Assembly (NCBI RefSeq): GCF_044704955.1
Contig: NC_091978.1
Location: 375,286,001 to 375,350,000 of the forward strand
DNA from: Pristiophorus japonicus
Taxonomy: Eukaryota
DNA length: 64,000 nucleotides
Reading direction: 5' to 3'
The notes beneath the pieces are model-generated. The model was not told the DNA's origin. It saw nothing but the letters and a program-made list of their open reading frames with translations, and did not search any database. Below, piece by piece: positions 16,701-61,582 of this stretch; the first letter of the stretch is position 1, and every line of letters starts with the position of its first letter. The position numbers and the translations under genes are program-made.

Positions 16701-19700
16701 AACAACAACTGACGCACCTACAACAACCGCCGCACCAACAACAACCGCCGCACCAACAACTGACGCACCTACAACAACCGCCTCACCAACAACAACCGCC
16801 GCAATAACAACAACTGACGCACCAACAACAACCGCCGCACCTACAACAACCGCCGCACCAACAACCGCCGCACCAACAACCGCCGCAATAACAACAACCG
16901 CCGCACCAACAACAACTGACGCACCAACAACAACTGACGCACCTACAACAACCGATGCACCAACAACAACCGCCGCACCAACAACCGCCGCAATAACAAC
17001 AACCGCCGCACCAACAACAACTGACGCACCAACAACAACAGACGCACCAACAACAACCGACGCACCAACAACAACCGACGCACCAACAACAACCGATGCA
17101 CCAACAACAACCGACGCACCAACAACAACCGACGCACCAACAACAACTGACGCACCAACAACAACCGCCGCACCAACAACAACCGACGCACCAACAACAA
17201 CCGCCGCACCAACAACAACCGACGCACCAACAACAACAGCCGCACCAACAACAACCGCCGCAATAACAACAACTGACGCAATAACAACAACTGACGCAAT
17301 AACAACAACCGCCGCACCAACAACAACCGACGCACCAACAACAACAGCCGCACCAACAACAACAGCCGCACCAACAACAACCGCCGCACCAACAACAACT
17401 GACGCAATAACAACAACTGACGCAATAACAACAACTGCCGCAATAACAACAACTGACGCACCAACAACAACCGCCGCAATAACAACAACTGACGCAATAA
17501 CAACAACCGCCGCAATAACAACAACTGACGCACCAACAACAACCGCCGCAATAACAACAACTGACGCACCAACAACAACCGCCGCACCAACAACAACCGC
17601 CGCACCAACAACAACCGCCGCACCAACAACAACCGCCGCACCAACAACAACCGACGCACCAACAACAACCGACGCACCAACAACAACCGCCGCACCAACA
17701 ACAACCGACGCACCAACAACAACCGCCGCACCAACAACAACCGCCGCACCAACAACAACCGCCGCACCAACAACAACTGACGCACCAACAACAACCGCCG
17801 CACCAACAACAACTGACGCAATAACAACAACTGACGCAATAACAACAACTGACGCAATAACAACAACTGACGCACCAACAACAACCGCCGCAATAACAAC
17901 AACTGACGCAATAACAACAACCGCCGCAATAACAACAACTGACGCACCAACAACAACCGCCGCAATAACAACAACTGACGCACCAACAACAACCGCCGCA
18001 CCAACAACAACCGCCGCACCAACAACAACCGCCGCACTAACAACAACCGCCGCACCAACAACAACCGACGCACCAACAACAACCGACGCACCAACAACAA
18101 CCGACGCACCAACAACAACCGCCGCACCAACAACAACCGACGCACCAACAACAACCGCCGCACCAACAACAACCGACGCAGCAACAACAACCGACGCACC
18201 AACAACAACCGACGCACCAACAACAACCGACGCACCAACAACAACCGCCGCACCAACAACAACCGCCGCACCAACAACAACCGCCGCACCAACAACAACC
18301 GCCGCACCAACAACAACCGCCGCACCAACAACAACCGACGCACCAACAACAACCGACGCACCAACAACAACCGCCGCACCAACAACAACCGCCGCACCAA
18401 CAACAACCGACGCACCAACAACAACCGACGCACCAACAACAACCGACGCACCAACAACAACCGCCGCACCAACAACAACCGACGCACCAACAACAACCGC
18501 CGCACCAACAACAACCGACGCACCAACAACAACAGCCGCACCAACAACAACCGCCGCAATAACAACAACTGACGCAATAACAACAACTGACGCAATAACA
18601 ACAACCGACGCACCAACAACAACAGCCGCACCAACAACAACAGCCGCACCAACAACAACCGCCGCACCAACAACAACTGACGCAATAACAACAACTGACG
18701 CAATAACAACAACTGCCGCAATAACAACAACTGACGCACCAACAACAACCGCCGCAATAACAACAACTGACGCAATAACAACAACCGCCGCAATAACAAC
18801 AACTGACGCACCAACAACAACCGCCGCAATAACAACAACTGACGCACCAACAACAACCGCCGCACCAACAACAACCGCCGCACCAACAACAACCGCCGCA
18901 CCAACTACAACCGACGCACCAACAACAACCGCCGCACCAACAACAACCGCCGCACCAACAACAACCGACGCACCAACAACAACCGATGCACCAACAACAA
19001 CCGACGCACCAACAACAACCGCCGCACCAACAACAACTGACCCACCAACAACCGCCGCAATAACAACAACTGACGCACCTACAACAACCGCCGCAATAAC
19101 AACAACTGACGCACCTACAACAACCGCCGCAATAACAACAACTGACGCACCTACAACAACTGCCACAATAACAACAACCGACGCACCAACAACAACCGAC
19201 GCACCAACAACAACTGACGCACCAACAACAACCGACGCACCAACAACAACCGACGCACCAACAACAACTGACGCACCTACAACAACTGACGCACCAACAA
19301 CAACTGACGCACCTACAACAACTGCCACAATAACAACAACTGACGCACCTACAACAACCGCCGCACCAACAACAACCGCCGCACCAACAACAACTGCCGC
19401 ACCAACAACAACCGACGCACCAACAACAACTGATGCACCAACAACAACCGACGCACCAACAACAACTGACGCACCTACAACAACTGACGCACCAACAACA
19501 ACTGACGCACCTACAACAACTGACGCACCAACAACAACTGACGAACCTACAACAACTGACGCACCAACAATAACTGACGCACCAACAACAACTGACGCAC
19601 CTACAACAACCGCCGCACCAACAACAACTGACGCAATAACAACAACTGGTGCACCAACAACCAATGCACCAACAATAACCGATGCACCTACAACAACTGA

Positions 19701-19872
19701 CGCACCAACAACAACTGACGCACCTACAACAACCGCCGCAATAACAACAACTGGTGCACCAACAACAACTGACACACCAACAACAACTGACGCACCAACG
19801 ACAGCAACATCAACATCATTCTCATCATCTTCATCTTCATCGGAAAGCAGTGAATCATCAGAGAGATGCAGA
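13702..19872 (+). CDS. spp2: SPP2-like gene copy 1, giant exon 4: end of cystatin domain + ~2000-aa Thr-rich mucin-like repeat + phosphoserine cluster
   Basis: CTTTCTATCTGTAG acceptor, AGA|GTAAGT donor, 6171 bp (2057 codons), phase 0-0, stop-free. Starts VAATCTSQVTIQTDVIQSVDVQC (cf. SPP2 TAVCRSTVKVSAQQVQGVHARC) and ends SSSSSSSESSESSERCR (cf. SPP2 SSSTSESYSSEE). Confidence 0.88.
13790..19800 (+). repeat. Coding minisatellite, 18-bp unit (CCAACAACAACTGACGCA / CCAACAACAACCGCCGCA), roughly 330-340 units
   Basis: Encodes PTTTDA/PTTTAA/ITTTDA hexapeptides; length variants are whole codons (e.g. PTTDA). Confidence 0.98.
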
Positions 19873-20088
19873 GTAAGTGTATATGACAGATATATTTTGA
19901 ATTTATGCTAGTTGAAACAATGGCCTACAAAGTTCTGATCACCTGTGCCAAAACAATAGCCCAAGTACGGTGAAAGACTGTTTTCGGCACTAAAAATCGT
20001 GGAAGTCACTTACACACTTTTTATGCTGCGCTTGAAGTGCCATGATATTTTGCACCAATTCTGTGACACCTCCACATTAATATAAAAA

Positions 20089-32918: not shown

Positions 32919-33320
32919 GTGTCTCAGTGACCAGGGCTGGACACCGAACTCCAAGTGTGGTCTGACCAGTGTCTCAGTGACCAAGGCTGGACACAGTGCT
33001 CCAAGTGTGGTCTGACCAGTGTCTCAGTGACCAGGGCTGGACACAGTGTTCCAAGTGTGGTCTGACCAGTGTCTCAGTGACCAGGGCTGGACACAGTGCT
33101 CCAAGTGTGGTCTGACCAGTGTCTCAGTGACCAGGGCTGGACACAGTGCTCCAATTGTGGTCTGACCAGTGTCTCAGTGACCAGGGCTGGACACCGAACT
33201 CCAAGTGTGGTCTGACCAGTATCTCAATGACCAGGGCTGGACACAGTGCTCCAAGTGTGGTCTGACCAGTGTCTCAGTGACCAGGGCTGGACACAGTGCT
33301 CCAAGTGTGGTCTGACCAGT
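32919..33320. repeat. 50-bp tandem repeat x8 derived from an old CR1 RT segment
   Basis: Units start at 32919, 32969 ... 33269. Minus strand reads LVRPHLEHCVQPW, the CR1 LVRPHLEYC motif. Confidence 0.9.
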
Positions 33321-34772: not shown

Positions 34773-34976
34773 AACCAGGCTCCTTAACACAAACTGATAC
34801 ACGAGGCTTAATCTGAAGCAATGAAGGCTCCAGATGGACCTGGTGCACATTTTGGGACTGCGTTAGATAATCTCTCAGATTAGCAACATCTATTTCTCCC
34901 ATAAACTGACTTGTGTCTCTCGTGACCAAGAGTTTACTCTTGTTACCCAATATCGAGATGTGTAATAGTGTAACAG

Positions 34977-35651
34977 TGTTGTAGAGAGTAGAAATATATA
35001 TAGACTTAGGCATTAGGCACCTGCTGGATATTTAAAACTCACATAAGCTTAAATGGACACACACATAAAATGGCTGCCCAGGCATTATGGGAAATCAGGT
35101 AGTCAAACTGTGAACTGTTGAACGTTCACTGACCGAGCAATAACCCTGTGAGGCCCACTGTAGGAATGCCTGGGAAGACAGAGATAAGAAGGAAACCATC
35201 TCCTGTGAACAAGGCCATGAAACCAATTATTTCAGGAAGAAAGATAAGAGGGAAACCATTTGCTGTAAACAAGGCTATATACCAATTATTTCTCCCAGAT
35301 GAAAGAACTAGGGAGAGAACCTATAAAGCCATCGATCAGCCCAAGCTGACAATAACCGAACATATGGTTCCCTGGATAGTAGGAGAATTCTATTGGATTA
35401 AAGAACCTATATGTAATCTATAATCGTTGTGATTGGCTTGTGTCCAGCCGTGATGGGCTGTGTAACTGTAGTAAACTGTTTTGTAACTGTTGTGAAACAT
35501 ATAAAGGTGCATGTAACTCTTTGTTCTGTGAAGAGAAACCTGGATACGGTCCTGAGTTTTTCCTTCCCGCTGAGCGTAATAAAAGCTGCTTCAGCATTGG
35601 AACCGACCCTGAGTGTTGAGTGATTCTTCTAAGAAAACACTAACGCTAACA
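34977..35651 (+). repeat. 5' LTR of env-only provirus
   Basis: TG...CA ends, CATATAAAA TATA-like box at ~35498, AATAAA at ~35578. Confidence 0.95.
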
Positions 35652-38235
35652 ATGGCGTAGTCGACGGGATTTCCCGGAGTCGCTGGACGCCCTTGGAAAA
35701 AAAACCCGGGTGAGTATAAAAAACTATTTTTAAGTATAAAGGGTGCGGAAGGTGGAAGCTGGTTGATCGACATGAGGAGACGGTCTAATATCTCAAACGC
35801 CTAGCCTGAGCCTGAATTAAGAGGACTTTTGTCCCACGTGACGGCCAGGAACCAAGTAGGCGTAGGGAACACACTTAGACCGTGGGATCGTGATACCGAG
35901 AGACATCTTCCGGACTCAGTAGTGTAATTTGAAATACCCCGGGATAGAACCAAGCGGTGTACAGCGGCTAACGGAATCCAAACCTGTGAACAGGGTCGGA
36001 CCAACAGGCTGAGCGGTGGTAGGTAGTCGTTAAGGATACGTAGAGCACTGCGGGAATTGCTTAAACGCGTTTTTAAGAATTGTATAAGTTTGTGCAACAG
36101 CAGAACTTGTGACCTGACAGTAGCCAAGAGACAGTTTACTACAAGTCGCGCTAGAAAGAAAGCGGACCTCTGAGAGTAGATTCCTAACGGTAGTAGTCCT
36201 ACCCAGGAATGGCCATGAAAACAAGTAAACTCGAGTGGGGACCAGAAGGGTCGCTTACCCGCCACCTGGCGGAAAAACAAAAGAAGCTAATTGAAAAAAT
36301 GATTAAAGCAGGGTGGAATCCTCAGGAATTAGTTATGTGAGGAATTATTTAGATAAAACTACGAATTCCCTGAAAGGTCATGGATCCAAAAATAGAGCCG
36401 GCCAAAACAAGAAGAGAGACTGTTGTAAATGTCTGATCGTTGAGTGAGAAGTGTCTGTGTGATTTTTGACTGCAGAATGAATTTTTTATGTTTTCATGTT
36501 CCGAAAGCCTGGTTGGAAGAGGAATGCAAGTGTCTGTTTATTTTAGAAACAGAGTGAAAGTCTTTTTTTAAACCCTTTGTAATGTTGTCCTGTATGTGGG
36601 AAGTTTTAAGACATTTAAGTTAGAAACGCAGGTGTGGATTTATTCGGATGATAAGTTACGGAGCTAGGAAAATAAACAAATAAAGAATAGGTTTGTTGAG
36701 CAAAATATTTATTTGACATGCTCACTTACTTGCCGAAAGAAAACATGCAATGATTGATTGGGTTGAAAGACATAAATTTAGTCTCGGAATGAGATAAAGA
36801 ATGCTTTAAAAAAAAAGAGCTTCTAAAAAAAAAGTTTTAAATAAAGATTGAAATTACAACGTTTGAATTGGGATTTTGAGATATTCAGAGAAGGCACAGG
36901 AAATACTGAGGTGGATTTAAAAAAAAAGAGAAAGATTAAATTAAATCTGATCAGGTCAAACTCCTGGGCAAGTGGCGAGCTATCTGCGAAGGTGTAAAAG
37001 GAACTTTTGGAAAATGTTAAAAAACAGCAAGCTTTAGTAACGACTTTGAAACTGGAGCATTTTGAGATAACGAAAGGCAGCACTCAAACTCTCAAAGCTG
37101 GTCTCCATTCCAGTTATGGAGAAAAAGAAAAAGATAAAGACGCCACTTTGAAAGTAAACAAATGATTTTAAATTAACAACTTTATGGAGTTACGAACCCT
37201 CCGTGTAAAATACAAAACCTAATTTGAAGAAAGGAAAAAAAAAGATGTAACGGACTAAATGGAAAAAGACATAACTTACTAAATACTAGTTGATGTTTGC
37301 TGTGAAAAAGATATTGGTTTAATTAGAAGAGAAAAAAAAATTGGAATAAGTAAAAAAAACACTCTACATGGATTCGAATTTTCAATTATGAAAAAGTTTC
37401 AATGCAGTTTGAAAAGATTTCCAAAATGGACAGTGTTTATCAAAAATGTCCCGAACAGTCTAAACAAGCAGGAGGGTTTTGAAGATAACGAGGAGAAAGA
37501 GAGAAATTAAAAAAAAAACAGAATTGAATTTCAGTAAACAAAATTGCTATTGTATGTGTGGTCTTGTTTTAAAACAATTAAAAAAAAAAATTATTTGGCA
37601 AGTACTTGAATTAGAAGTTAAGAAAACATTGGAGTTTACTCTAATGATTTATGCTGTTTAACGGATTCCTAATTTCGAAGCCAGTTTTGAAGGCACAAAG
37701 ACTTTTTTTTCAGATGATTACGTGAAGTCACGTAATGACATCAGGTCTTCTTACAAACCTGGAAAGGAGTTAACCCTTTCCATTGACAGCCGTTTTATAC
37801 TGAACATTATTAATTTGGATTTCTTAATAGATATTCAATAAAACAAATTGAAGAGTTAAAAGCTAAGATAAACAGGCTGGAAGAGATAACGGGACTAGAC
37901 GGATAGTGCAGTGCGCAGCCATAGCACCATCACCTCTGGCAATAGAGCCAATGTACCCCACGGTGGGTAGGTGTAGTCCACAAACCCAACCTAACGGTAA
38001 AGCAGACAGCGATGTTTGGAGGAATAGCTTTGGCCTTGGTCATAATAGGAGTTTGGGTAATATTTAAGTGGGTAAAGACACGGGCGCACGCCCTACAGAT
38101 TCAGCTCGAAATGGTTCGATTATAACCTTGTCCTTCTGATTTTGCAGGGTGACAGGGACACTCGTAGAGCAAAAAAACTTAACCCCTGGTGACGACCAGG
38201 CCGTCTGTTTAAAATTACAGATAATACTTACCGGA

Positions 38236-40363
38236 ATGGGAATACGAAAGGCGCTACTCGTAATATGGATAGCCCTGCGACATGCACGTACCCTGGGCAA
38301 CACCGACGGACAGCAGAGCACGCTGGAAATAAACAACTATATGAACTATGGAGTCTTGTTTAATTTAACGGACGGAATGTGCATCCCAGCAGCCAAGGAC
38401 TGGAGCAAGGACAGGACTTATTTTAATGCATGGTTACAAGTGAATCCTAATAAGAATCCTAATAAGAATAAGAGTATGTGTACAGTGCTCCACGGGTATA
38501 AGGAGCAGATGCATTAAACGGAGGGATGTCATAGGGCCTGATGAATGTACTTTCGGCATAATTTGCGCGCCTCCGGGACAATCCCAGCAATCAGTCATCC
38601 GCAAGAAGAGAATGGGGCTGTGTGGGTATTACGAGGAGGCGGGGGCGGCTGCAATATCATTGTATGTATGTTTCTCACCCCCTCCGACACCGCGCCCCAT
38701 AAGAATCACTACATTGCCCGAAGAACTGCCTTGTCCCATAACTACTAAGGGACCAGAAAATGGGATTGCAATGTACAACGAAGGGGAATTATTGTATGAT
38801 AATGTTAAACATGAAATTGTGCCTGTTCTGATCAATATTTCAGGCATCCAGATGCCGGAATATTGTACCGAACAGTCAAGGAAGATGTACAATGTATTAA
38901 GTAAAGTCGTAATGCAGCAGGCTGCCGATGCCATGGGTGCCAGTAAGTTCCGGGGACAGGGGTTAGCACCCAGGGTGAAGAGGGAAATAGTAAATGATGT
39001 TGCTACCGTTTTTAATACAGGAACCTCCGTAGTGAACTCGATAGACATACAAGGGCTAAATGAGAGGGTAGAACAGCTTAAAGGGGTGATGAAGGGGTTA
39101 TTGGAGAGGTTGGAGCAAAACCAGGAAGACCAGGCCAACCTAGGAAAGGAGGGTGCCGAAATCCAGTTGGATGGCATCTCAGTCCTGGAAGCTCACGCTA
39201 AAACCATCAATCACCTCATTGATAGAGAACAAGAAGATACAATAAAGCAAAGACAGGGGCAACTCTGTCATGCTTATGGTCTGTGGATGGTGGGACAGAT
39301 CCGCCACAACCTCGACCAGATCCAACGTGGGGAAGTACCCGATTGGATAGACAGTTCACATTTAGCTCAGTTGGCGAACCAAAGGGGGACACTGGATAAT
39401 TGTACTCTGAAGGGACTGACCCGAGTATACCCCGCAATTCCAGATTGCCAGATGGGTAGGACTACCGGGATAGGGATAGTCCTGTTGATCCCCATAGCAA
39501 CGCCGGACTCAGGGCCGTTCCCCTTATACCAACTAGAGAATATCGGAGTAATACGGGAAAATGTCTCCATACGCTACTACCTAACCACCACCTCTGCCGT
39601 TCGTCGAAACAACATACTTACTGGGATTTCCCTAGCAGATTGCAAGCAAAGGGGGGAAATCACAGTATGCCCTCACCCGGTGGGCCGAGGGGAACTAGAC
39701 GAGTGCGGGTTTAACCGAACCAACGGGTGTGTACTAGAAATAGTGCCCGCACACATGCACTTCGCGAGGGCAGGCTACGGAGGGAGGGGAAGATACTGCG
39801 TCTCTACTACTGAGCGTTCATACCAGTATAATGACCTACAGTGCCCTATACCGCAGCCAAACTTTTGCTTTACACCACTACGACCTGTCGCGATCGGGCA
39901 AGCGCATATCACCCAGGTTAGGCGCCGGAAGTCCAAAGTTATTGAAGTAACTGATCAGCTCCATGATCATTTGCAGGATTATGACGAGCCAGAGCAGGTC
40001 CCTATCCCACATCTAACCGAAGTATTACGGGAGTTGAGGCTCAGAGTGGGTCAATCTGTAAAACTCTATCACCAGCTACAAACTAAAATCAAAGAAGATA
40101 CCGAGGTAGACTTACAAAGTCAGAGTTGGTGGAGAAAGGTCTGGGACTGGGGAATAAATGTGAACATCCACCCATGGATCCGAATTATTTCACACACACT
40201 GGTCGGAATACAATTAATCTTAGCAATAACATGGGGCGTGATGGCCTGCCAGGTATGCAGGCGCCACAAATGGCGGAAACGGACTAATCACCGTTCCCTG
40301 GATATTAAACAGGCCTGTTTGATAAGGGGACGGGAGGAGCTAGCCTTTGTTAATTTGATTTAA
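38236..40363 (+). CDS. env: Envelope / class I fusion glycoprotein (F-like); N-terminal signal-peptide frame separated by one frameshift near 38440-38475
   Basis: MGIRKALLVIWIAL signal peptide at 38236. The main frame is open from ~38444 to 40363, with furin site RVKR, fusion-peptide-like EIVNDVATVFNTGTSVV, a heptad repeat, a Cys-rich ectodomain, Trp-rich WWRKVWDW and a TM segment. Confidence 0.85.
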
Positions 40364-40502
40364 GCAACCGGAACTCCTGAAACCGCGTGACTGGCCAGCA
40401 CGTTGAGGCAAGGAGTACCGGGCAGTGCACAAATATCAGATAAAGGCAGTACGGTCGGTTAAAAGGGGACTAGGACTAGTCCCTTTACCGAAAGGGGGGA
40501 AT

Positions 40503-41177
40503 TGTTGTAGAGAGTAGAAATATATATAGACTTAGGCATTAGGCACCTGCTGGATATTTAAAACTCACATAAGCTTAAATGGACACACACATAAAATGGC
40601 TGCCCAGGCATTATGGGAAATCAGGTAGTCAAACTGTGAACTGTTGAACGTTCACTGACCGAGCAATAACCCTGTGAGGCCCACTGTAGGAATGCCTGGG
40701 AAGACAGAGATAAGAAGGAAACCATCTCCTGTGAACAAGGCCATGAAACCAATTATTTCAGGAAGAAAGATAAGAGGGAAACCATTTGCTGTAAACAAGG
40801 CTATATACCAATTATTTCTCCCAGATGAAAGAACTAGGGAGAGAACCTATAAAGCCATCGATCAGCCCAAGCTGACAATAACCGAACATATGGTTCCCTG
40901 GATAGTAGGAGAATTCTATTGGATTAAAGAACCTATATGTAATCTATAATCGTTCTGATTGGCTTGTGTCCAGCCGTGATGGGCTGTGTAACTGTAGTAA
41001 ACTGTTTTGTAACTGTTGTGAAACATATAAAGGTACATGTAACTCTTTGTTCTGTGAAGAGAAACCTGGATACGGTCCTGAGTTTTTCCTTCCCGCTGAG
41101 CGTATTAAAAGCTGCTTCAGCATTGGAACCGACCCTGAGTGTTGAGTGATTCTTCTAAGAAAACACTAACGCTAACA
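40503..41177 (+). repeat. 3' LTR of env-only provirus
   Basis: Near-identical to 34977-35651; the poly(A) signal reads ATTAAA here. Confidence 0.95.
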
Positions 41178-41709
41178 CAGTAAACCCACTTTCCCCACAC
41201 AAGAGGGCGCCTGTGCTACTCGTTCCTTCCAAAAGGAGGATTGGTCAGCACTTTAGTGAGATGAAGCCAGATATAAATCATTAAGCTGCTTTATTTTACA
41301 GTCAGTAAAGAGCAACAGTCATAATTAATGAAATTTTACTTTAAGTCATCTCAGCTTCTCCTTCCCATGAGGAACTGTCTCTGTAACACTTGGGCTTGGC
41401 TGTCTCCCTTACGTTGACAGGCCAAGGCCCTACCAGCTTCCTTAGCCAGAGTTTTTCCAACTGACCTACATCAATGAGTTTTCCTCTTGTGTTCCCCTGG
41501 CCAGGAATGTTGTCATTTCTTCCCTTTGCTCCTTCCCTGCCCTTGGGTTGGCCAATAGAACTGCTCATGATCCAGCCAGGTCCCTATCGAGCGGATTTCT
41601 ACCAGACAATCCCAGGCTGTGTACACAAGGACATGTTTACTCACACCACCTCAAATATGAATGCCAATGGGAAGCATCGGAAATGAAATGATAAACTACT
41701 TACTGTTCC

Positions 41710-42140
41710 ATCATCCACCAATGGATCCACCACCGACCCAATCCACATCCGAACCGGGATCAAGCAGAGCTGCGTCATCACTCCGACCCTCTTCATGATC
41801 TTCCTCGCTGCCATGCTCCACCTCACAGTCAACAAGCTCCCCGCTGGAGTGCAACTAAACTACAGAACCAGTGGGAACCTGTTCAACCTTCGTCGCCTCC
41901 AGGTCAGATCCAAGACTGTCCCATCCTCTGTCGTCGAGCTACAGTACACGGACGATGCCTGCGTCTGCGCACATACAGAGGCTGCACTCCAAGCTATTGT
42001 CATCACCTTCACCGAGGTGTACAAAAGCATGGGCCTTACGCTAAACATCCATAAGACAAAGGTCCTCCACCAACCTGACCCCACCACACAGCACTGCCCC
42101 CCAGTCATCATGATCCACGGCGTGGTCCGGGACAACATTG
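41710..42140 (+). mobile_element. RTE/BovB-like RT fragment
   Basis: Same family as 1590-3170 (LQYTDDAC motif). Confidence 0.85.
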
Positions 42141-42374
42141 TTGTGGATAGCAGTTTCAAAAGCAGGTTCATTATGTCCTCTTTGTCCACGTGCTCCAGCC
42201 TTTCATGGTGCCAACGGGCCCTGTGGGTTCCAGTGGCATTCCTAAAGCTGGATGAGAAAGAAGAAAAAATGGATGAAGGCAAATTACATCAAAGAAGGTC
42301 ATGTAGCAGGGACAAAACATTGACTTCAGTGAGCAATCTGAGCCCCCCACCAACAGTCCTGCCCTATAGACATG

Positions 42375-44117
42375 CAGGGACAGCAGGCAGTAAAGGAAGC
42401 AAATGGCATGTTGGCCTTCATAGCAAGAGGATTTGAGTATAGGAGCAGGGAAGTCTTGCTGCAGTTGTACAGGGCCTTGGTGAGACCACACCTTGAGTAT
42501 TGTGTGCAGTTTTAGTCTCCTAATCTGAAGAAGGACTTTCTTGCTATTGAGGGAGTGCAGCGAAGGTTCACCAGACCGATTCCCGGGATGGTAGGACTGA
42601 CATATGAAGCAAGGTTGGATCGACTCGGCTCATATTCAATGGAACTTAGAAGAATGAGAGGGAATCTCATAGAAGCATATAAAATTCTGACGGGATTGGT
42701 CAGGTTAGATGCAGGAAGAATGTTCCTGATGTTGGGGAAGTCCAGAACCAGGGGTCACAGGCTAAGGATAAGGGATAAACCATCTAGGACCCCTCCCCAC
42801 AGTGACGGGATCAGCCCAAGTCAGTATGGATTTATGAAAGGGAAATCCTGCTTGACAAATCCTCTAGATTTTTTGCGGATGTAACTAGTAGAGTGGACAA
42901 GGGAGAACCAGTGGATGTGGTGTATTTGGACTTTCAAAAGGCTTTTGTCAAGGTCCCACACAAGAGATTGGTGTGCAAAATTAAAGCACATAGTATTGGG
43001 GGTAATGTACTGACATGGATAGAGAACTGGTTGGCAGACAGGAAGCAGAGATTTGGGATAAACTGGTCCTTTTCCGAATGGCAGGCAGTGACTAGTGGGG
43101 TACTGCAGGGCTCAGTGCTGGGACCCCAGCTATTTGCAATATATATTAATAATTTGGCTGAGGGAATTGAGTGTAATATCTCCAAGTTTTCAGATGACAC
43201 TAAGCTGGGTGGCGGTGTGAGCTGTGAAGAGGACGCTAAGAGGCTGCAGGGTGACTTGGGCAGGTTAGGTGAGTGGGCAAACACATAGCAGATGCAGTAT
43301 AATGTGGATAAATATGAGATTATCCACTTTGGTGGCAAAAACACGAAGGCAGAATATTATCTGAATGGCAGCAGATTAGGAAAAGGGGAGGTGCAACGAG
43401 ACCTGGGTGTCATGGTACATCAGTCATTGAAAGTTGGCATGCAGGTACAGCAGGCGGTGAAGAAGGTAAATGGTATGTTGGCCTTCATAGCTAGGGGATT
43501 TGAGTATAGGAGCAGGGAGGTCTTACTGCAGTTGTACAGGGCCTTAGTGAGGCCTCACCTGGAATATTGTGTTCAGTTTTGGTCTCCTAATCTGAGGAAG
43601 GACGTTCTTGCTATTGAGGGAATACAGCGAAGGTTCACCAGACTGATTCCCGGGATGGCAGGACTGACATATGAGGAGAGACTGAATCGAATGGGCCTGT
43701 ATTCACTGGAGTTTAGAAGGATGAGAGGGGATCTCATAGAAACATATAAAATTCTGTCGGGACTGGACAGGTTAGATGTAGGAAGAATGTTCCCGATGTT
43801 GGGGAAGTCCAGAACCAGGGGACATAGTCGAAGGATAAGGGTTTAGCCATTTAGGACTGAGATGATGAGAAACTTCTTCACTCAGAGAGTTGTTAACCTG
43901 TGGAATTCCCTACTGCAGAGAGTTGTTGATGCCAGTTCATTGGGTATATTCAAGGAGGAGTTAGGTATGGCCCTTACGGCTAAAGGGATCAAGGGGATAT
44001 GGAGAGAAAGCAGGAAAGGGGTATTGAGGGAATGATCTGCCATGATCTTATTGAATGGTGGTGCAGGCTCGAAGGGCCGAATGGCCTACTCCAGCACCTA
44101 TTTTCTATGATTCTATG
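42375..44117 (+). mobile_element. CR1 LINE fragments (two pieces)
   Basis: RT ORFs 42555-42884, 42893-43288, 43292-43846; TTCTATGA tail at ~44103-44117. Confidence 0.92.
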
Positions 44118-44710: not shown

Positions 44711-44960
44711 NNNNNNNNNNNNNNNNNNNNNNNNNNNNNNNNNNNNNNNNNNNNNNNNNNNNNNNNNNNNNNNNNNNNNNNNNNNNNNNNNNNNNNNNNN
44801 NNNNNNNNNNNNNNNNNNNNNNNNNNNNNNNNNNNNNNNNNNNNNNNNNNNNNNNNNNNNNNNNNNNNNNNNNNNNNNNNNNNNNNNNNNNNNNNNNNNN
44901 NNNNNNNNNNNNNNNNNNNNNNNNNNNNNNNNNNNNNNNNNNNNNNNNNNNNNNNNNNNN
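44711..44960. other. Assembly gap (250 N)
   Basis: Run of N. Confidence 1.
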
Positions 44961-46232: not shown

Positions 46233-47381
46233 TCAACAGATAATCGAAAGAAGAATAGCAGATGGATCAGAAAAGTCCCAGGGCCTCCACTGAAGTTCTT
46301 TTTTAAATTGGCACTTAGAAAGACCTGGGATGTGGGCGTTGCTGGCAAGGCCGGCATTTATTGCCCATCCCTAATTGCCCCTTGAGAAGGTGGTGGTAAG
46401 CTGCCTTCTTGAACCGCTGCAGTCCGTGTGGTGAAGATGCTCCCACAGTGCTGTTAGGGAGGGAGTTCCAGGATTGTGACCCAGCGACGATGAAGGAACG
46501 GCCGATATATTTCCCAGTCGGGATGGTGTGTGACTGGGAGGGGAACGTGGAGGTGGTGGTGTTCCCATGCGCCTGCTGCCCTTGTCCTTCTAGGTGGTAG
46601 AGGTCGTGGGATTGGGAGGTGCTGCCGAAGAAGCCTTGGCGAGTTGCTGCAGTGCATCTTGTAGATGGTGCACACTGCAGCCACGGTGCGCCGGTGGTGG
46701 AGGGAGTGAGTGTTGAAGGTGGTGGATGGGATGCTGATAGAGAATTCAAACAGGCTGCATTTAGACAGGCTGCGAAAATTCACAGACCCCAAATCAAAGC
46801 TACTACGTGCAGTTCAGCATGTGGCATTAAGTCATCAATCAACTTGACATTTCAGGACCTTGGGTAGCGAGCCAATTAAAAGGTTAAAAGACCATTAATT
46901 TAGCCAATAAGGTCAAAGAAGGTGAGTTCTTTTCTGTAAATTGAACCCGGTATAAATATAGCCATTTTAGCCATGTGGTCCCAGAAGGACAAAGGCCTGG
47001 CTTAAAGCCAAGAGCTTGTTACTGCTGCCAAAATAAAGTGACATTAAAACTACAATCGGAGTTCGTATTTCATTGGAAATCAAGAGATCTAACAATTTTG
47101 GCATCACGAACATGATTGCTGAGGAAAGAAACTGAATTTTGGACATCGGACCTACATACTGAGGTAAGGACTCCTCTTTATAAAAGTCCTCGGTCAAAAG
47201 TCTAAATTCACCTCTCCTTCTACGTGATTCCGAAAACCTCCGGTTTGCGAACCCTCCAGTTGGTAGTCGGCTCGAGGTCCCATAGACGTCTAACTTCGGC
47301 GGTGTGTTAGTTAATTAATCACCGACCTATTGATCGGCTGGAAAGTCTACGACTCGAGACCCCAGTAAAGAAATCAGTATT

Positions 47382-48938
47382 ATGGCAGCAGGAGATAAGA
47401 GCAAAGAATTGCCTACAACTGTTAAAGGTGGGCAGGCACCACCTGAGGTTTCGATCGATGAAATCCTCCAACAGTTGAAAGGATACATAGAGCAACAATT
47501 CAACTTATCTAAAACCTGTATTAAGATCGAACAAAAATATGGTATCTCCAAAGGACAATGGTCCTTGGACGAGATTAAAAGGGTCTGGGGAAAAACGACC
47601 CGTATGAAAAATAAAGAGCGAACTAGATGGTCCCTAGCGGTTATGGGCCAGATTCGAAACCAGAATGAAATTATAATGCGTTCCCAACATGATCGAGAAC
47701 TGACCAGTATAAAGGATCAATTGCAAGCTGTTTGTGCACAGCTGCGACAGAAAAAGCTTGAACTTGAAAAGCTGGAAGCGGAAGTTAAAGATCTTAAAGG
47801 TATAATTAAAGAATGAAAAAAATCATAAGGTCAAGAGACATTAATAGGAAAAGGAAAATGTATCGATCGGTCAATTCCCAGGGTACCCATGTTTGGATAA
47901 ATTAAAAGCGCAAACCCGAAGACACGACCGAGGAATAGATCCGGATTCTCAACCCGACGACGATACAGGGTCGGAGGATGATGAAGAATTAGGGGTGCGC
48001 TTTGCCCCGTTAAAAAAAAGACGAGTTGTAGTCAAATCAGAAGAGACTGCGGATGAGGGCGGAACCAAAAAAACAAAGAAAAGGCTGTATGAAAAATACT
48101 TAGTTCATGATCCGGCAGACCCAGAGAAAATTGATAAATGGTCCAAGGAGTTGCCCAATCCAAAGAAAGGGGGAGTAAAAACGTGGGACCAATTGGACCG
48201 CTTAAGAAATATATATCAACTTCATCCCTGGGACGGAGTGCAAATTTTGACCATAATGGTGCCAAAAACACAGGGAAGAAAATTGCACGACAAGGTAGAT
48301 GAAGCTTTGGGGCAGAATGAGCAAGAATTAGACGCAGGATGGGAGGCGATTAAACACTGGCTGCAAGCCTTCAGTCCAGCTAAGACAGACTGGGGAAAAA
48401 TTGCAGCCTGCTAACAGAAAGGAACAGAGGAGGTCCTGGAGTATGGCGAGCGGTTTAGATGCACGTGGCTAGAACATTCGGGTATGAATAATACAGATGA
48501 GGAAATGGATGAACAAGTGTTTGGACCCCTGAAAGCAGCTTTCGTGGCAGAACTGTTAAAATGCTTAAGGTAGTGTTACCGGACTGGGAAGGTAGAGGAA
48601 CTACCTTTGCAGCATTGGTGGATCGATGTAACCAATTAGATCGGAATATGGGGGCTAAAGTCCGAGCTGTACAGGCTATGGGATGGAAATCCCAGGATTC
48701 CGATAAACAGTTATTAGGAAAATTACCCGGAAAATGTCATTATTGTGGGAAAGAAGGTCACTGGGCCAAGACGTGCAGGGCAAAACAGCAAGGTCACGGC
48801 CAGGGAAGAGGACGCAGTCAGGGATACAATTCAGCCAACAAACCAGGCTTGTCACAAGATAACGACCTCATAGAAGCATTTAAGCGACTGACAATACAAA
48901 AACATAAGGAGTTACTTGGGATAGCAAAAGACGATTAG
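47382..48938 (+). pseudogene. gag: gag (disrupted): coiled-coil N-terminal part, capsid (YQLHPWDG), CCHC zinc knuckle
   Basis: ORFs 47382-47816, 47893-48414 and 48561-48938 with CHYCGKEGHWAKTC; stops and frameshifts between them. Confidence 0.88.
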
Positions 48939-49983
48939 AGCCCACCCTGGCCCCCCTCCTCGCACTAATACAACAAAGGGGAGATGGGCTATATATATAA
49001 CTGTGAGGGTGGGCGATAAGGATGTGGACTGTCTTTTAGACACGGGCGGAATTAACATGCTTACCCCTACAATATGGAGACTTTTTGCCGTTGGATGGTA
49101 GGGCACGTACAGCCTATGGAGTTGGGGGCCATAAAATGGAAATTAAAAGGACAATACCAGTACTTATAGGGCTGGGTCCACATGAATTCAGCAATTGGAG
49201 AAACAAGGGGTGCTTATTAAAACGCACAGCTCCTCCAATAGCCCCGTGTGGCCGGTACAGAAATCTAATGAGACTTGGCGTTTGACTGTCGATTATAGGA
49301 GAGCTAACCAGTGTATTGATCAAAAAGCTCCTTTGGTCGCAGATCCCTCCACCATTTTTAACGCCCTCAAACCGGAACATAAATATTTCTCGGTTATAGA
49401 TATGGCCAATGGATTTTGGTCGGTGCCTCTGGCACCGGAGGTTCGACAGTGGTTTGCTTTCACGGTCCAAGGACAACAGTATACTTGGACCCGGTTACCG
49501 CAGGGTTTCCACAACAGCCCTACGGTATTCCACATGGCTTTACAAAGCCATTTGCGAGAATTACCTCCCCTGTCATCCACAGTCATCCAATATGTAGACG
49601 ATATCCTGCTAGCTTCAAACACGGAAGAACAGCATGAACAAGATTTATGAGCTTTGCTGGACCACCTTTGGCTGAAAGGACATAAAGCCAGCATCGACAA
49701 AGCACAAATATCCCAAGAAGAGGTTGTATACCTGGGACAAAAGATTTCACGAGGAAAGAGAGAATTTACCCAGGATAGAACTGCAGCCATTCGGGCTGCT
49801 AAAAAACCCACCACTATTCAGGAACTAAGGTCCTTTTTGGGATTGTGTAACTTTAACAGAAATTGGATTGACTCCTTCACACAGCTTGCTCAGCCATTGA
49901 ATGATATCTTAAAGGGGAAACGTGCCTCTAAAGAAGCCATCACCCTCACTAAGGAACAGCAAGAGGCCTTCCTGAGTTTGAAA

Positions 49984-52032
49984 CATAGAAACATAGGGCC
50001 CAAGTTTCCACATGATTTGTGCCTGATTTTTAGGAGCAACTGGTGGAGAACGGACTATCTTAGAAATCGCAATTCTCCACATTTTTTTTTCTGCAGTTCT
50101 AGTGAGGTAGAACAGTTCTACTTTAGAACAGAATTTTTTCTTCAAAAGGGGGCGTGTCCGGCCACTGACGCCTGATTTCAAAGTTTCCACAGTGAAAACG
50201 TAATCCAAACTAAAGTAGAATGGAGCAAGTGAAGATTTTTGTAGAGCTGAAAAAACCTGTTCTACACATTAAAAAATCAGGTGCAGGTTACAAATTAGGC
50301 GTCCAGAACGAGGTGGGGGGGGAAGGGGAGTCATTAAATTCTATAATCAATCCTTATTTATACTTCCACAAATATTATACAAATAAATCCAACCTGAATA
50401 AACATCTATAAGCAAAGAAAAGATTAAATAAACCATCTTCCTACCTGTGTGAAAGTGCTTCAGCCATCGTTCGTTCCCGCAGGGGGTGGGGAAGGAGACC
50501 GCCGTTTGTTGCCGCAGAGGGGAGGGAGGGGAAGGAAACCGCCGTTTGTTGCCGCGGAGGGGAGGGAGGGGAAGGAGACAGTGGTTTGTTGCCGCGGAGG
50601 GGAGGGAGGGGAAGGAGACAGCGGCTTGTTGCCGTGGAGGGTGGGGAAGGGAAGGAGACAGCGGCTTGTTGCCGCGGAGGGGAGGGAGGGGAAGGAGACA
50701 GCGGCTTGTTGCCGCGGAGGGTGGGGAGGGGAAGGAGACAGCGGCTTGTTGCCGCGGAGGGGAGGGAGGGGAAGGAGACAGCGGCTTGTTGCCGCGGAGG
50801 GGAGGGAGGGGAAGGAGACAGCGGCTTGTTGCCGTGTAGGGTGGGGAAGGGAAGGAGACAGTGGCTTGTTGCCGCGGAGGGGAGGGAGGGGAAGGAGACA
50901 GCGGCTTGTTGCCGCGGAGGGGAGGGAGGGGGAGGAAACCGCCGTTTGTTGCCGTGGAGGGTGGGGAGGGGAAGGAGACAGTGAGAAGGGTAGCCTCAGT
51001 GCTGATGTGCTGATGGCAACGTGCTTTTATTAAAAAATTAAACAGCTACAAAGAACTACAAAAATGGCCGAGTGCCAATGTTTCCTTCACACTGAGCATG
51101 TGCGAACGCTCCAACGCGCACGCGCAGCGTTGCTGGCAGGAAAAAAACTAATTTAAATAGTACCCGCTCCCTCCCACTTACAAAATCGGCGCGAGTGTAG
51201 GCTCCGCCCCCCCTGGGCGCCGCACCAAACAGACAAGGAGCTGCAAAGCGCTCGAGAATAGCGTGTTTTTTTTCTGGCGCCGTTTTAGGCGCGAAAAACG
51301 GGCGCCCAGCTCGGAAGGGCGCCTGTTTTTTATCGTGTGGAAACTTGGGCCCATAGAAACATAGAAAATAGGTACGGGAGTAGGCCATTCGGCCCTTCTA
51401 GCCTGCACCGCCATTCAATAAGTTCATGGCTGAACATGCAACTTCAGTACCCCATTCCTGCTTTCTCGCCATACCCCTTGATCCCCCGAGTAGTAAGGAC
51501 TTCATCTAACTCCTTTTTGAATATATTTAGTGAATTGGCCTCAACAACTTTCTGTGGTAGAGAATTCCACAGGTTCACCACTCTCTGGGTGAAGAAGTTC
51601 CTCCTCATCTCGGTCCTAAATGGCTTACCCCTTATCCTTAGACTGTGTCCCCTGGTTCTGGACTTCCCCAACATTGGGAACATTCTTCCTGCATCTAACC
51701 TGTCTAACCCCGTCAGAATTTTAAATGTTTCTATGAGGTCCCCTCTCATTCTTCTGAACTCCCTGAATACAAGCCCAGTTGATCCAGTCTTTCTTGATAG
51801 GTCAGTCCCGCCATCCCGGGAATCAGTCTGGTGAACCTTCGCTGCACTCCCTCAATTGCAAGAATGTCCTTTCTTAAGTTAGGAGACCAAAACTGTACAC
51901 AATACTCCAGGTGTGGCCTCACCAAGGCCCTGTACAACTGTAGCAACACCTCCCTGCCCCTGTACTCAAATCCCCTCGCTATGAAGGCCAACATGCCATT
52001 TGCTTTCTTAACCGCCTGCTGTACCTGCATGC
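49984..52032 (-). mobile_element. CR1 3' fragment inserted in pol, with the MITE inside its tail
   Basis: CATAGAAA tail on both sides of the MITE; RT C-terminus at 51444-52030; pol reads FLSLK before and KALCSAP after. Confidence 0.9.
49996..51352. mobile_element. Non-autonomous DNA transposon (PIF/Harbinger-like MITE) containing a 40-bp minisatellite
   Basis: 21-bp TIR GGGCCCAAGTTTCCACA(T/C)GAT, 3-bp TSD ATA, internal 40-bp repeat GGGGAAGGAGACAGCGGCTTGTTGCCGCGGAGGGGAGGGA at ~50480-50980. Confidence 0.88.
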
Positions 52033-54129
52033 ATGAAAAAGGCTTTGTGTTCGGCACCGGCTCTGGGAATCCCCGACAGTGGTAAGCCATTTACCCTGTT
52101 TGTTCATGAGAAAGAAGGATATATGACAGCTATACTGACACAAGAACATGAGGATCGGCAAAGACCTATTGGCTATTATTCAGCAAAACTGGATGCGGTA
52201 GTCCTCGGATGGGGAAGTTGCCTAAGGGCCATGGAAGCTGCATGTCGAGCGGTAATGATCACTGCGGGTCTAGTCCTCGACCAAAAGCTGATTGTCAAGT
52301 GTTCCCACACCGTACACGCTTTGCTGTCTATGAATAGAATGTCTCAGGTGACAGCAGCAAGATGGACCCGCTGGACAGCAGTTTTGGAAGCTCCTAATCT
52401 CCATATCGTCCGGGCCAGCCCGGTTAATCCCGCAACTATGCTCCCGATGTCAGAATCGAGGGAGCAAGAGGGGGGAGAATGTGAAGAGCATGACTGCGTG
52501 GAGATTTTAAAAGAAACAGAAGAAGCAGTCTTAGCAGCAGAGGAGCCTCTGCACAACTCAGACCTCATCCTGTTTACAGATGGTTCCTCCTTTGTTGACA
52601 ATGGTACCAGAAAAGCAGGATGGGCAGTTACAACCTTATATGAGGTAGTGGCAAAAGTACGTTTACCCTCAGGAACGTCAGCACAACAGGCCGAGTTATG
52701 GGCCCTGTCAGAAGCATGTCGAATAGCAGAAGGACAGACAGCTAATGTCTACACAGATTCGCGTTATGCTTTTGGAGTCGCTCACGACTTTGGTATGTTA
52801 TGGCGGAAAAGAGGATTCCTCACTGCTGCTGGTACACCTATCCGAAATGGAAAAGAAGTCCGAGATTTACTAGAGGCCATACAATTACCTCAGGAAGTGT
52901 CCATCCTGAAGTGTAAGGTCCATACCAAGGAAAATACCACAGAAGCACAGGGAAATGCCCTAGCCGACCAGGCAGCGAAAGATGCCGCCTCACAGGGCGT
53001 TCCTCCAGAAGAACCAACACAGATGTGCAGATTGAAAGCACTCAGGACTCTGACACGAGACCTTCAAACAATGCAAGGCGAGTGCTCCCGAGAGGAAAAA
53101 TGGACATGGATTGAGGCAGGAATTAAGCTATGCGAAGATGGTGTCTGGAGACAAAGAGTTACCGACAAGCCAGTCGCGCCACAAGCGCTTATGCCTTTTT
53201 TAGCCCAACAGATCCACTCGTGGGGACACTTGGACTCACAACAGATGACAGCACAGTTCCAGAAAAGCTGGTGGGGTTGGGGATTTAAAAAACATGCCCA
53301 GCTGGTAACAGACCGCTGTGTGGTCTGCTCGAAAAATAATTCTGGACCCATCACGGTAATGCCCCAACTGAGGCCCCCTGCCCCTGTCGGACCATTCCAG
53401 CATCTGCAGGTTGATTATATATCTCTTCCTTCATGCCAACGATAAATTTGTGTGGAAGCTACTAGTCCGGACATGTGGCGAAACACATCAACAAATTTTA
53501 GAAGGAAACTCTATTAACATGTATGAAATTATTTTGTAGAATGTTTAACAAGTGATACCTGATGTTTTATGATTCAGTTTGTGAAAGAATCAAAGGGGGG
53601 ATTGATAGAGAATTCATACAGACTGCATTTAGACAGGCTGTGAAAATTCACAGACCCCAAGTCAAAGCTGCTACGTGCAGTTAAGCATGTTGCATTAAGT
53701 CATCAATCAACTTGACATTTTAGGACCTTGGGTAGCGAGTCAATTAAAAGGTTAAAAGACTATTAATTGAGCCAATAAGGTCAAAGAAGGTGAGTTCTTT
53801 TCTGTAAATTGAACCCGGTATAAATACAGCCATTTAAGCCATGTGGTCCCAGAAGGACAAAGGCCTGGCTGCAAGCCAAGAGCTTGTTACTGCTGCCAAA
53901 ATAAAGTGACATTAAAACTACAATCGGAGTTCGTATTTCATTGGAAATCAAGAGATCTAACAGATGCCGATCAAGTGGCTGCTTTGTCCTGGATGGTGTC
54001 GAGCTTCTCGAGTGTTGTTGGAGGTGCAACTCATCCAGGCAAGTGGAGAGTATTCCATCACACTCCTGAGTTGTGCCTTGTAGATGGTGGGAAGGCTTTG
54101 GGGAATTCAGGGGGTGTGACACTCAGATC

Positions 54130-57687: not shown

Positions 57688-58126
57688 GTAAAGAGGAGGT
57701 GGGCTCTGAGCTTGCATCAGTGCTACGTGGAGATGTAGAAGCGGGAATCTCCTGCAATGCACAGATGTTGGGGACTGGATTGCAGGACATTCCCCCTTCT
57801 CATCTCCATACTTAAATAACATTCCTGCTTCCCCTATGTGGGGCTTCCAGCCCCATCGACTCAGAGGCAAATGCCAAATTCATGTCAATGGGCAGAATTT
57901 CTGAGCCTTTCCTGCGTTACTGGAACAATGGTCTTTCCTGTAACGGTCTCAACTAAGTTCCCTTAAGACTCTCGATGCCATCAATAACTTGCATTGATAG
58001 ACCTTTAATGTAGAAATCTGATCCAAGGCACTTCACAGATGCCTGAGCAAAATGGATGAGGAGCTGAAAAGGAGGTATTGGAAGGCTTAAGCAAAAACCT
58101 GCTAAACACTGGGGTTTAAAGGAAGA

Positions 58127-61100
58127 TGTTGTGTCAGCAAGCATTCTAGTAATGACTCCACAAGGTAAGGTATTGCACTTGAACTGTTGGGACCTTACTC
58201 CATTTATTGCAGCTCCTGAGTAAGGGTACAGTAAGGTGAGCAACCTTTTATACCTGGTTACCTGCAGTGTGCAGGTGACCCCTAGGTCTCCACCAGTTGC
58301 ATCCTCTGGTGGTACAGGCATAGTGTATATAGTGTAAAGATACATTCATTGGTCTTATGTAACTGTACATTGGGTGTACAGGGTATATATATATATAAAC
58401 AACATCACTCCCCCCCTAAGTCTTGTGCAACTGGGCTTTGCACTGTGTGCTCTGGCCCTCGACTTGAGTGCCCAAAGCCCTTGCAGTTTGTCTGAGTTTG
58501 GGAATGGCTCTCCCCCTGTGGACCCCCAAGTCCTTATTGCCACAACATTGGGAAATGGTCAGCAGTGGATGGTTGGAGGTTGCAGTGGGGGTTGCATGGG
58601 TTCTGGATGTGATCCATGTGTGTCCATGGCTACATACATCCATTTCACCCCCCCATACATAGACCATGTGTGTGGCTCGACATTTGCACTTACATACATG
58701 TACAGAGAATGAAAAATAAAAGTAGGATTGGTTGCATGACTATTTGGGTTTAGCAGTAGTGGAATAATTATATGTTACAGGTAAGGTACATATGTGGTAA
58801 CACAGTCTTGCCCCTGGGGTGTAGGTGCAGGTGGGTGAGCACGCTAGTTCCAGAGTAACCAGACTGTGTCCAGGTTGTCTGATGGCGCCGCTGTGCCCCC
58901 TGCCAGCTGGGTGGGCTCGGTTGCTCCCTTGGCTGGGTCTCGGGGCCTTTTCCATTGTCTAGTGGTGGGCAGAGCCACAGGAATGTGTGGCCTTCCTGTC
59001 CTCATTTGAGAGGTGCAGTGTCTCCCTGCTGCGATGGTTGGAGCTTGGTCATCCCAGGTCCCATCGAGAGGGCTGGAGGGTGCTGGCCTCTTGCTCCCGG
59101 TGCTGGCCCTGGTGGCCAGAGAGGTAGGGCCAATCTGGGGCAGGGTACCGGTAGTGGTGCCTGTGCCATCCGCTGATCGCTGGCCCTACAGTGGGTATGC
59201 TCCCACTGTGTGTGGCCACACTCCCTGGGGCATCACATTGGTCCCGGAGGTGCAGGCTACATGACCGGGTAGCCCGCTGGACCTGGGTGCTTCAAATGGG
59301 AGGTTGCCCTTGGTTTTGTCAGCGTGCATATTGAACCCGGCATCAGACATTATTCCATCGTTTACATTCATGATCCATTGGCTCCGATCGCTCTCAGGTA
59401 CTAGTTCACATTTGTCAATTACATCTTTTCCCTCAATTTTCCATGTATATTACCGGCATCGCTGCACAATGTTACATTTAGATACTTGTATTCATAAATT
59501 ACATATTTTCCACGTATCCGATGGGCATCGCTGTTCAACGGTACGTTTAGATACTTGTATTTGTTAATTATATCTCTCACATTAGTATCACTGGCATCAC
59601 TGTACAAAAAGTGGAACAGTCCCTTTAATTGTTTTGGGTTGCCGGTCCCCTTTAAGAGGGCCTTGCAATCTTTACCCCAATCCGGTTCGCTGCTCAGCAT
59701 CACATGTTGCTCCCTCAACGCTGCTCCTCGTGGTCTGGTCGTGGTCATCTTGATTTCAGGCGCTTCACCACGTGGTGCGGGCACCATCTTTTCTCTCTCC
59801 ACGAGGTAAGCTGTGGTGATCCTTTTCTCCCCAGGTTCTGCTACTGTAGCCGGGGATTTACCTTCTGCATCGATCTTCTCCCTTCGGAGCCCTGCCACGG
59901 CCCAGAAGGTGAGGTCTGGTCGTTCGGGTTGGATCATCTCGCCGTTGAGTAGTGTGGTCTGTGTCGTTGCCGCGCAGTCGAGTTGGATGGTCTTCAGGTA
60001 CTGCGATGGATCCAAATTTTGGACCGCATAGGACGTCGATCGCTGGGGCCTGGAGGCTTTCCCAACTCCAACAAATTTGGATTTGCTTCATCGATCTTCT
60101 TCCTAGCAGCGTTGGACCATCACCAGCAACGATCCACAAGGGTAGCTTGTGCATCACGCCACCGTAGGACACCTGGACATCCACACTGCCAACGACTGGG
60201 ATGGTGTCATTTGTGTAAGTGAGCAGCTTCACCTGAATCAATATCATTCTGGGTTGTACGATAGGATTGTCCCAGAGTATCTCGAAGGCCGTCTGGTTCA
60301 TCAGCGATTGGCTCGCCCCTGTGTCGACCTCCATCGAGACTGGAACACCATTGATTTCAACTTCCATTTTCAGTGGGGAACTCTCGGTGGAGCAGGTAAA
60401 CACTCCGTCCACCTCTTCCTGAGGCAGAGCTGCCTCCTGGACTCTCTCTTCGTCTTCATCAGCACTGGAGCCCGGGTGATCGACCAACTCTTCAGCGACT
60501 CGGTGAGTAAAGTTTCTTTTACACATTTGCTGTAGATGGCCTTTAGTGTTACAGCCTTTGCAAGTATAGTCTCGGTATCGGCACTGGTGAGCTCTGCGAT
60601 TTTCTCCACATCGCCAGCATGGGGCTGGCTGGTTGGCCACCTGCGGCGGACTCAGGGTTGCGGGGCTCGGGGTCGCAGTCTTGGCTCTGAAGGGCACCAG
60701 TCGGATCACTGTACTTGCCATGTTAGAGTCCTGGGGTTTAGTCATCATCCTTCTGGAATCGCAGGCCGAGGCCATGAACACTTGGCTCATACTAATTGCC
60801 TTCTGCAGGGTGATGGTGGTGTCTGCAGAGAACAGCCTGTGGAGGATACCTTTGTGGCCAAGTCCAATAACAAAGATGTCCCTCAGTGCTTTGGTGAGGT
60901 GGTCGCCAAAATCACACGGTGCAGCCAATCATCTCAGGTCTGCAGCATATTTTGTGATTTCTTGGCCTTCGGACCGTCGGTGGCTGCAGAACCGGTGTCT
61001 GGCTGTGAGGATGCTCTCTTTTGGCTTGAGCTGTTCCTGTATCAACTTTACGAGCTCCGTGTACGTTTAGGTTGTCATCTTCTCTGGGGCTAGCAAGTCC

Positions 61101-61582
61101 CTGACAAGACCATGGACAGTGGGCCCACAACTGCTGAGCAGGATAGCTCTGCGCTTGTCAGCCAGCGAGGTCGGTGTGTCTCCTGCCAGGTCGTTTGCGA
61201 TGAAGTAGTGTTCTAGTCTTTCCACAAAGGCATCCCAATCTTCCGCATCAGTGAATTGTTGAAAGGTGCCAAGGTTAGCCATTTTTCACGTGGAAATTCG
61301 TAATCTCATCGCCAGTTGTTGCATCTGTAAGCACTCTAGTAATATGGTAAGGTATTGCACTTGAACTGTTGGGACCTTCGTCCATTTAATGCAGCTACTG
61401 AATGAGGTTACAGTAAGGTGAGCTCCCTTTTATACCTGGTTACCTGCAGTGTGCAGGTAACCTCTCGGTCTCCACCAGTTGCACCCTCTTGTGTTGCAGG
61501 CATATTGTATACAGTGTAAAGATACATTTATTGGTCTTATGTAACTGTACATTAAGTGTACAAGGTATATACATACACAACA
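58127..61582 (-). mobile_element. Gypsy (Mag-like) LTR retrotransposon, deletion derivative with gag and protease only
   Basis: LTRs 58127-58404 and 61317-61582, TSD GAAGA, PBS TGGCGATGAG, PPT at ~58405-58417. gag MANLGTFQQF..DWDAFVERLE with tandem zinc knuckles and protease VDTGAS; no RT or IN seen. Confidence 0.9.

Follow-up and report, generated by a model that had tools for sequence, protein, structure and literature searches.

A multi-copy endogenous retrovirus family of Pristiophorus japonicus that retains env between its LTRs and probably spreads on borrowed Gag and Pol

Introduction

Endogenous retroviruses (ERVs) that amplify in genomes usually lose env. The stretch of Pristiophorus japonicus DNA analysed here (the window, 64 kb in its full length) carries a provirus that seems to have gone the other way, as it has paired LTRs and an env gene with no recognisable gag or pol between them. 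The locus thus raises the questions of when the missing genes were lost, how an element of this kind could have multiplied, and whether its env has been of any use. The original prediction, made from the letters of the sequence, held that gag-pol was probably already absent at integration, that the element is non-autonomous and mobilised in trans, and that it might represent the envelope-donor half of a bipartite system. The reading favoured here, with a probability of about 0.68, is that the provirus belongs to a non-autonomous ERV family present in many copies in a cartilaginous fish, which would obtain Gag-Pol from an intact relative and whose env was once under selection and is now broken in the sub-lineage of the studied copy.

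Structure of the provirus

The two LTRs differ at 3 sites over 675 bp and share TG...CA termini, and a PBS-like 18-mer and a PPT are located at their inner sides (Table 1), in agreement with the original prediction. Within the 5' LTR, a two-copy 60-bp repeat (35173-35292), a TATA-like element (35500) and an AATAAA hexamer (35578) were identified. One of the three LTR differences (41105) falls into this poly(A) hexamer, which reads AATAAA in the 5' LTR and ATTAAA in the 3' LTR. The target-site repeat is atypically short, comprising the 3-bp CAG with TG...CA ends or, if each end lost one terminal base, a 5-bp ACAGT that then overlaps the LTR termini. The PBS resembles what we take to be the 3' end of tRNA-Ser. 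Primer binding sites of the serine type are linked with ERV4. Membership in ERV4, prompted by this likeness, was considered and dropped: the available text of PMC4299795 does not mention a tRNA and describes ERV4 without the GPY/F motif. Rfam and ARAGORN searches returned no matches. When the RNA was folded in 12 equal tiles, the 491-nt tile that spans the putative packaging region was the most structured one (z of -4.4 to -5.2, the next tile reaching -2.95), a signal seen in the 491-nt tile only, as the leader was not outstanding in 200-nt tiles. The provirus had been called very young, which fits the 3/675 LTR differences, but in a relative sense: at the shark rate assumed in the available part of PMC4422223 its age may be about 10 My (95% range 2-30), against 1 My at a mammalian rate.

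Table 1. Features of the provirus, in window coordinates
Feature	Position	Strand	Remark
Provirus (element)	34977-41177	+	paired LTRs, PBS, PPT
Left target-site repeat CAG	34974-34976	.	second copy 41178-41180
5' LTR	34977-35651	+	675 bp
R-U5-PBS-leader, putative packaging region	35530-36020	+	folding z of tile
Putative PBS, 18-mer	35653-35670	+	one base past 5' LTR
Splice-donor consensus G/GTGAGT	35709-35716, cut 35709/10	+	predicted from consensus
Leader segment matching first exon of paralogue model P0007	35974-36024	+	13/16 residues
Candidate donor GTG/GTAGGT	36018/9	+	ends P0007-matching leader segment
43-codon ORF, possible gag stump	36209-36340	+	at usual gag start position; no homolog
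A-rich, C-poor decayed interior	36400-37850 (about)	+	many A-runs; common to many copies
Donor-like CG/GTAAAG	37996/7	+	consensus
37-codon ORF, one hydrophobic stretch	38012-38125	+	upstream of env; no family match
Splice-acceptor consensus TTTTGCAG	38140-38147	+	consensus
Second acceptor ATTACAG	38214-38220, cut 38220/1	+	coincides with exon junction of P0007
5' part of env, with signal peptide and beginning of SU	38236-38517	+	93 aa, then stop
env frame break	38442-38475	+	12-bp tandem repeat
env main frame, 639 codons	38444-40363	+	rest of SU, RVKR, fusion subunit, membrane anchor
PPT	40490-40501	+	precedes 3' LTR
3' LTR	40503-41177	+	99.56% identity to 5' LTR

Both sites on which the proposed splicing of env was based, a donor at 35709/10 and an acceptor TTTTGCAG at 38147, are present as consensus sequences. 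The acceptor had been placed just before the env ATG, but the first ATG is 89 nt downstream, and the acceptor at 38220/1 is in better agreement with the paralogue P0007. In this automatic gene model, a peptide matching 35974-36018 is joined to env, which fits the donor at 36018/9 and the acceptor at 38220/1. Among the public sequencing runs described below, X6 contains a joint 37995->38176, close to the donor-like site 37996/7 and to the 38147 acceptor; the joint 35709->38148 was absent among the 15 of 64 joints listed, which counts neither for nor against splicing. By these predicted sites, env of the element may be spliced.

Between the donor and the acceptor, about 2.3 kb of largely A-rich DNA had been described. 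The A-rich composition holds over approximately 36400-37850, but the first ~550-750 bp of the 2.6-kb interior are a leader of ordinary composition. The A content is 41.5% over 36800-37850, and nine A-runs of at least 6 occur in the 1.45 kb of A-rich interior. The reported lack of recognisable gag and pol was borne out by several searches: no Pfam domain was matched in any of the 6 read-through frames of the interior, no homolog of one such frame was found among 2787 candidates at E<=1, env and the leader were the sole matches of note when 75 retrieved proteins were used in tblastn, and no integrase-tail remnant was detected in the 64-kb window. From its position, the 43-codon ORF at 36209 is a possible gag stump, and the 37-codon ORF upstream of env possibly encodes a small accessory membrane protein or arose by chance. 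Over 36209-37510 (434 codons), the frame of the ATG at 36209 contains 20 stops vs 34 and 32 in the other two; as few as 20 were obtained in 26 of 1000 dinucleotide shuffles, for an interval picked after inspection, and a weak residual bias is located at 36851-37510. This frame bias points weakly to an old ORF, which may be decayed gag or swapped-in junk.

Related copies and their diversity

Contigs of four of the eight listed sequencing runs were aligned onto 34900-40502 at 85% likeness. The DNA run X1, which may be the source of the window itself, contributed 24,406 contigs covering all 30 bins, with median summed depths of 189k for the interior, 267k for env and 304k for the LTR, where summed contig depth is not equivalent to copy number. 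None of the listed variant places has an X1 depth below ~21,000, and the eight long X1 contigs listed have depths of 14-67. By a rough inference, the family would comprise hundreds of copies, if not more. In X1, the A-rich interior and env are similarly abundant, contigs diverged by 8-14% were found in both the interior and env, and in X6 and X7 a different left flank, the one other flank observed, adjoins the LTR start; the structure is thus multi-copy. No contig spans the element, and interior and env are presumably linked in the other copies. Because the A-rich interior is about as deep as env in X1, gag-pol was gone before the studied insertion occurred, and on this point the original prediction stands.

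At several places, more than 99% of the X1 depth is unlike the window, which marks letters private to the studied copy. Among the 40 listed differences, at least 10 are such near-private letters, near the ~11 expected from the LTR divergence, and the letter at 35379, which is the same in both LTRs, is missing from ~95% of the X1 depth. In X5-X7, the env depth is 2.8- to 4.7-fold the interior depth, although the kind of these runs is unknown and the ratio is no measure of expression. The proportion of X1 contigs that continue into dissimilar sequence, such as that of a helper, was 0, the contigs being short and 1165 loose ends lying outside those listed. A depth peak at 36583-36769 is present in all four runs (13,254 in X5, vs ~800 in the adjoining bin), and another abundant repeat may contain this part of the interior.

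The env gene and its relatives

Nearly all of env is present, as predicted, but a frameshift breaks it in the studied copy, where the signal-peptide frame (ATG 38236) and the 639-codon frame differ, with the switch at the 12-bp tandem repeat. The 5' piece shows 81% identity with P0007 across 74 aa. The main frame includes the RVKR cleavage site at 38972, an F-like fusion subunit and a membrane anchor near residues 586-604, and, compared to P0002, is devoid of three residues near the C-terminal heptads. The most that the studied copy could produce is a short SU stub, which would be secreted, or a fragment devoid of the leader. The break is not private to this copy: the sole X5 contig over 38532 (367 nt, depth 633.5, 3 other letters) is gap-free across it, and at least one other abundant form has the same broken layout. 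In X7, a contig of higher divergence has another length at the break, and P0007 reads through this region and is broken later.

All nine close homologs of env are labelled as shark proteins, those of Pristiophorus at 92% and 85% and the others at 57-66%; both of the closest ones, P0002 and P0007, are partial. A deeper search yielded 54 proteins, and among the 10 looked up, 9 are labelled as proteins of sharks, a skate or frogs. A structural model of env built from 39 sequences reached a pLDDT of 75, and an earlier one from 10 sequences (pLDDT 29.5) was set aside. Using Foldseek, the model was matched to RSV F (E 1.9e-10) and hPIV3 F (E 4.3e-10), and among the viral models of BFVD to the Env of the walleye epsilonretroviruses WEHV1 and WDSV; the env profile gave a weak match to foamy Env 8rm1 (E 0.0025). 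Env is therefore predicted to be an F-type class I fusion protein with a fold like that of paramyxovirus and pneumovirus F.

The N-terminus of the Chiloscyllium model P0008 resembles the C-terminal domain of MLV-type integrases (MLVIN_C; 0.94, Pfam share 90%), and an integrase tail directly before env implies that relatives with pol exist or existed, with env right behind pol. No longer pol-env fusion was found among 5293 candidates, which is weak evidence, and scans of metagenome and viral contigs revealed no relatives. Related env pieces are fused into the shark host gene models P0047, P0038 and P0033 (cadherin-related, Niban-like and fbxo15); these fusions are probably annotation chimeras or exonised ERV fragments. 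The distant homolog P0041 shows a weak Ig V-set match (E 0.045), with none detected in the studied env.

Selection was assessed by synonymous counts for the 40 best supported of 437 differences, among which 21 fall into the env main frame and 12 into the interior frame, the other 7 being unclassed. The env differences shared among copies are synonymous in 12 of 14 cases, against an expected share of 0.28 (p 1.2e-5), which is the signature of purifying selection across copies and shows that env was constrained as a protein during the diversification of the family. Those private to the studied copy are synonymous in 2 of 7 cases (shared vs private, Fisher p 0.017), as this copy has drifted since insertion, and only 2 of the 12 interior differences leave the amino acid of the 36209 frame unchanged. 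As the variants are not tied to individual copies, it may be in full-length parents that the selection acted, and some of the differences may stem from full-length relatives.

Origin and spread

Most likely, the element spreads on enzymes borrowed from an intact relative. The ancestor would have been a gag-pol-env retrovirus with an F-type Env, whose descendants lost their centre long ago, either because it was partly deleted and the remainder decayed where it stood, or because older junk was swapped in. Env would have been kept under protein-level selection through much of the diversification of the family, be it within the parent virus or within the elements themselves. The LTR would drive a full-length RNA retaining the PBS, the structured leader and the PPT, which Gag and Pol of the intact relative would package, reverse-transcribe and integrate, and a later frameshift would have broken env in the sub-lineage of the studied copy, turning it into a passenger. 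The claim of a non-autonomous element mobilised in trans was supported as far as the multi-copy structure lacking gag-pol is concerned, but no helper was found, nor a competent sibling with a matching LTR within the 64-kb window, and the mobilisation in trans is what we infer.

The env-only elements might instead be the envelope-donor half of a bipartite system with an env-less gag-pol partner, both being packaged, env being selected via reinfection and the studied copy being a dead member. Such a system would agree with the strongly synonymous env polymorphisms beside an unconstrained interior, with the existence of diverged versions of both, with the retained env splice signals and the joining of leader to env in the paralogue model, and with the excess of env over interior depth in the runs of unknown kind. 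Nevertheless, we regard it as unlikely, and the donor role originally proposed was not supported: a frameshifted env cannot give a full envelope, the broken layout is common to the only X5 contig over this place, the two closest proteins are partial, neither a helper nor a partner lacking env was found, the LTRs of the env-less provirus at 46728-53962 being unrelated, and central loss with the ends kept is a known pattern, described in the available part of PMC10924933. Similarly doubtful is a long-spread env-only satellite which lost gag-pol early and whose Env, functional and selected, is supplied to an env-less gag-pol partner, which would amount to a two-part vertebrate ERV with an F-type fusion protein.

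Alternatively, most of the copies could stem from an old provirus bearing the deletion that was copied by segmental duplication in the host or by gene conversion, its LTRs becoming homogenised later; this would be compatible with the heavily decayed interior beside near-identical LTRs and with the atypical target-site repeat. This origin is very improbable given the other flank at the LTR start in X6 and X7, the presence in both LTRs of a letter at 35379 that most of the X1 depth is without, as expected from copying one template, and the agreement of the near-private letters with their expected number. Still more improbable is an env retained by the host, whose full or truncated product blocks the receptor of related exogenous viruses or has another host function: the signal peptide reads on in frame into the start of SU, and the product is predicted to be secreted, and defective env-expressing proviruses of mouse and cat are restriction factors (PMC10536682, in the part available), but 5 of the 7 private changes of the studied copy are non-synonymous, as under neutral decay. 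Finally, the possibility of a post-insertion deletion in a single copy, or of recent decay of a full provirus, to which the weak frame bias downstream of the 36209 ATG could point, is largely refuted and the least credible of all, since the interior is abundant and diverse in X1 and 20 stops in 434 codons cannot build up during 0.4% LTR divergence.

Relation to known systems

The D-type of bovine ERVK[2-1-LTR], mouse ETn/MusD and koala recKoRV are trans-complemented ERVs with a replaced centre, as described in the available portions of PMC10924933 and PMC6112702. The studied family resembles them in that the LTRs, PBS, PPT, leader and 3' end are kept, gag-pol is gone or not intact, copies are numerous and probably at independent loci, one further flank having been observed, and a competent relative would be needed. 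As far as the same portions describe them, these elements retain portions of env or pol only and their centre derives from an older retroelement, whereas here nearly the whole env is present, with a synonymous bias, the interior has no homolog and a weak frame bias, and no competent sibling was found in the window. Zebrafish BHIKHARI Bik-2 is likewise a non-autonomous fish ERV family with a single viral gene between LTRs, but according to the available part of PMC12067270 it keeps gag, not env, and has intact copies with a host function. No multi-copy env-only ERV family was found among the papers listed in literature searches, within which subscription journals were thinly covered.

Chicken EAV-HP carries a pol deletion. 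Like the provirus studied here, it is short (4.2 kb), present in multiple copies and equipped with env and LTRs, and its env passed to ALV-J through recombination, a precedent for env donation; it differs by its 10-15 copies, its alpharetroviral env and the one-off recombination in place of standing complementation (PMC9481566 and PMC10820513, both in part). The signal peptide, RXKR site, coiled coils, membrane anchor and F-like fold are shared with the Env of lokiretroviruses (PMC7947760, in part), walleye epsilonretroviruses and foamy viruses, but these groups are defined by RT, which in lokiretroviruses is placed as sister to that of retroviruses and which the studied element does not have, so that its lineage is not nameable from Env. 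The F-like Env with an RXKR site, typical of lokiretroviruses, was found here as RVKR with RSV F and hPIV3 F matches. Lokiretroviruses also have a CGIN1-related integrase; the integrase tail of the relative P0008, the part of the enzyme available for comparison, scores as MLVIN_C and is MLV-like. Sharks are not mentioned in the available text of the lokiretrovirus paper (PMC7947760).

Env loss favours ERV amplification, as cited in the available part of PMC6112702. A large family without gag-pol but with a selected env would, if true, be the reverse of this usual loss and would make it possible to test if the genes of a retrovirus can be divided among elements that complement each other. The ordinary reading, too, would add a shark ERV family, of high copy number and with an F-type envelope, which pol-based screens would miss.

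Neighbouring sequence

Several other repeats were observed in the window. A second, older provirus at 46728-53962 has 367-bp LTRs that are 95.4% identical, 5-bp GATGC flanks, and an MLV-like RNase H and integrase zinc-finger fragment at 52012-53442, and is devoid of an F-like env. It was ruled out as a helper, as it shares no DNA similarity with the studied element; the LTRs of both end in CTAACA. A third LTR-like element (58124-61575, 270-bp repeats, 86%) contains a minus-strand ORF with a zinc knuckle and an aspartyl protease at 59861-60928. To the right of the studied provirus, a LINE-type RT fragment (41687-42436) and an assembly gap of 250 N (44711-44960) are located, and a 50-bp tandem array occupies 32919-33320. 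Further upstream, a plus-strand ORF of 2069 codons (13702-19908), rich in Thr, Pro, Asp and Ala and built of 337 copies of an 18-bp repeat, resembles a host mucin repeat exon.
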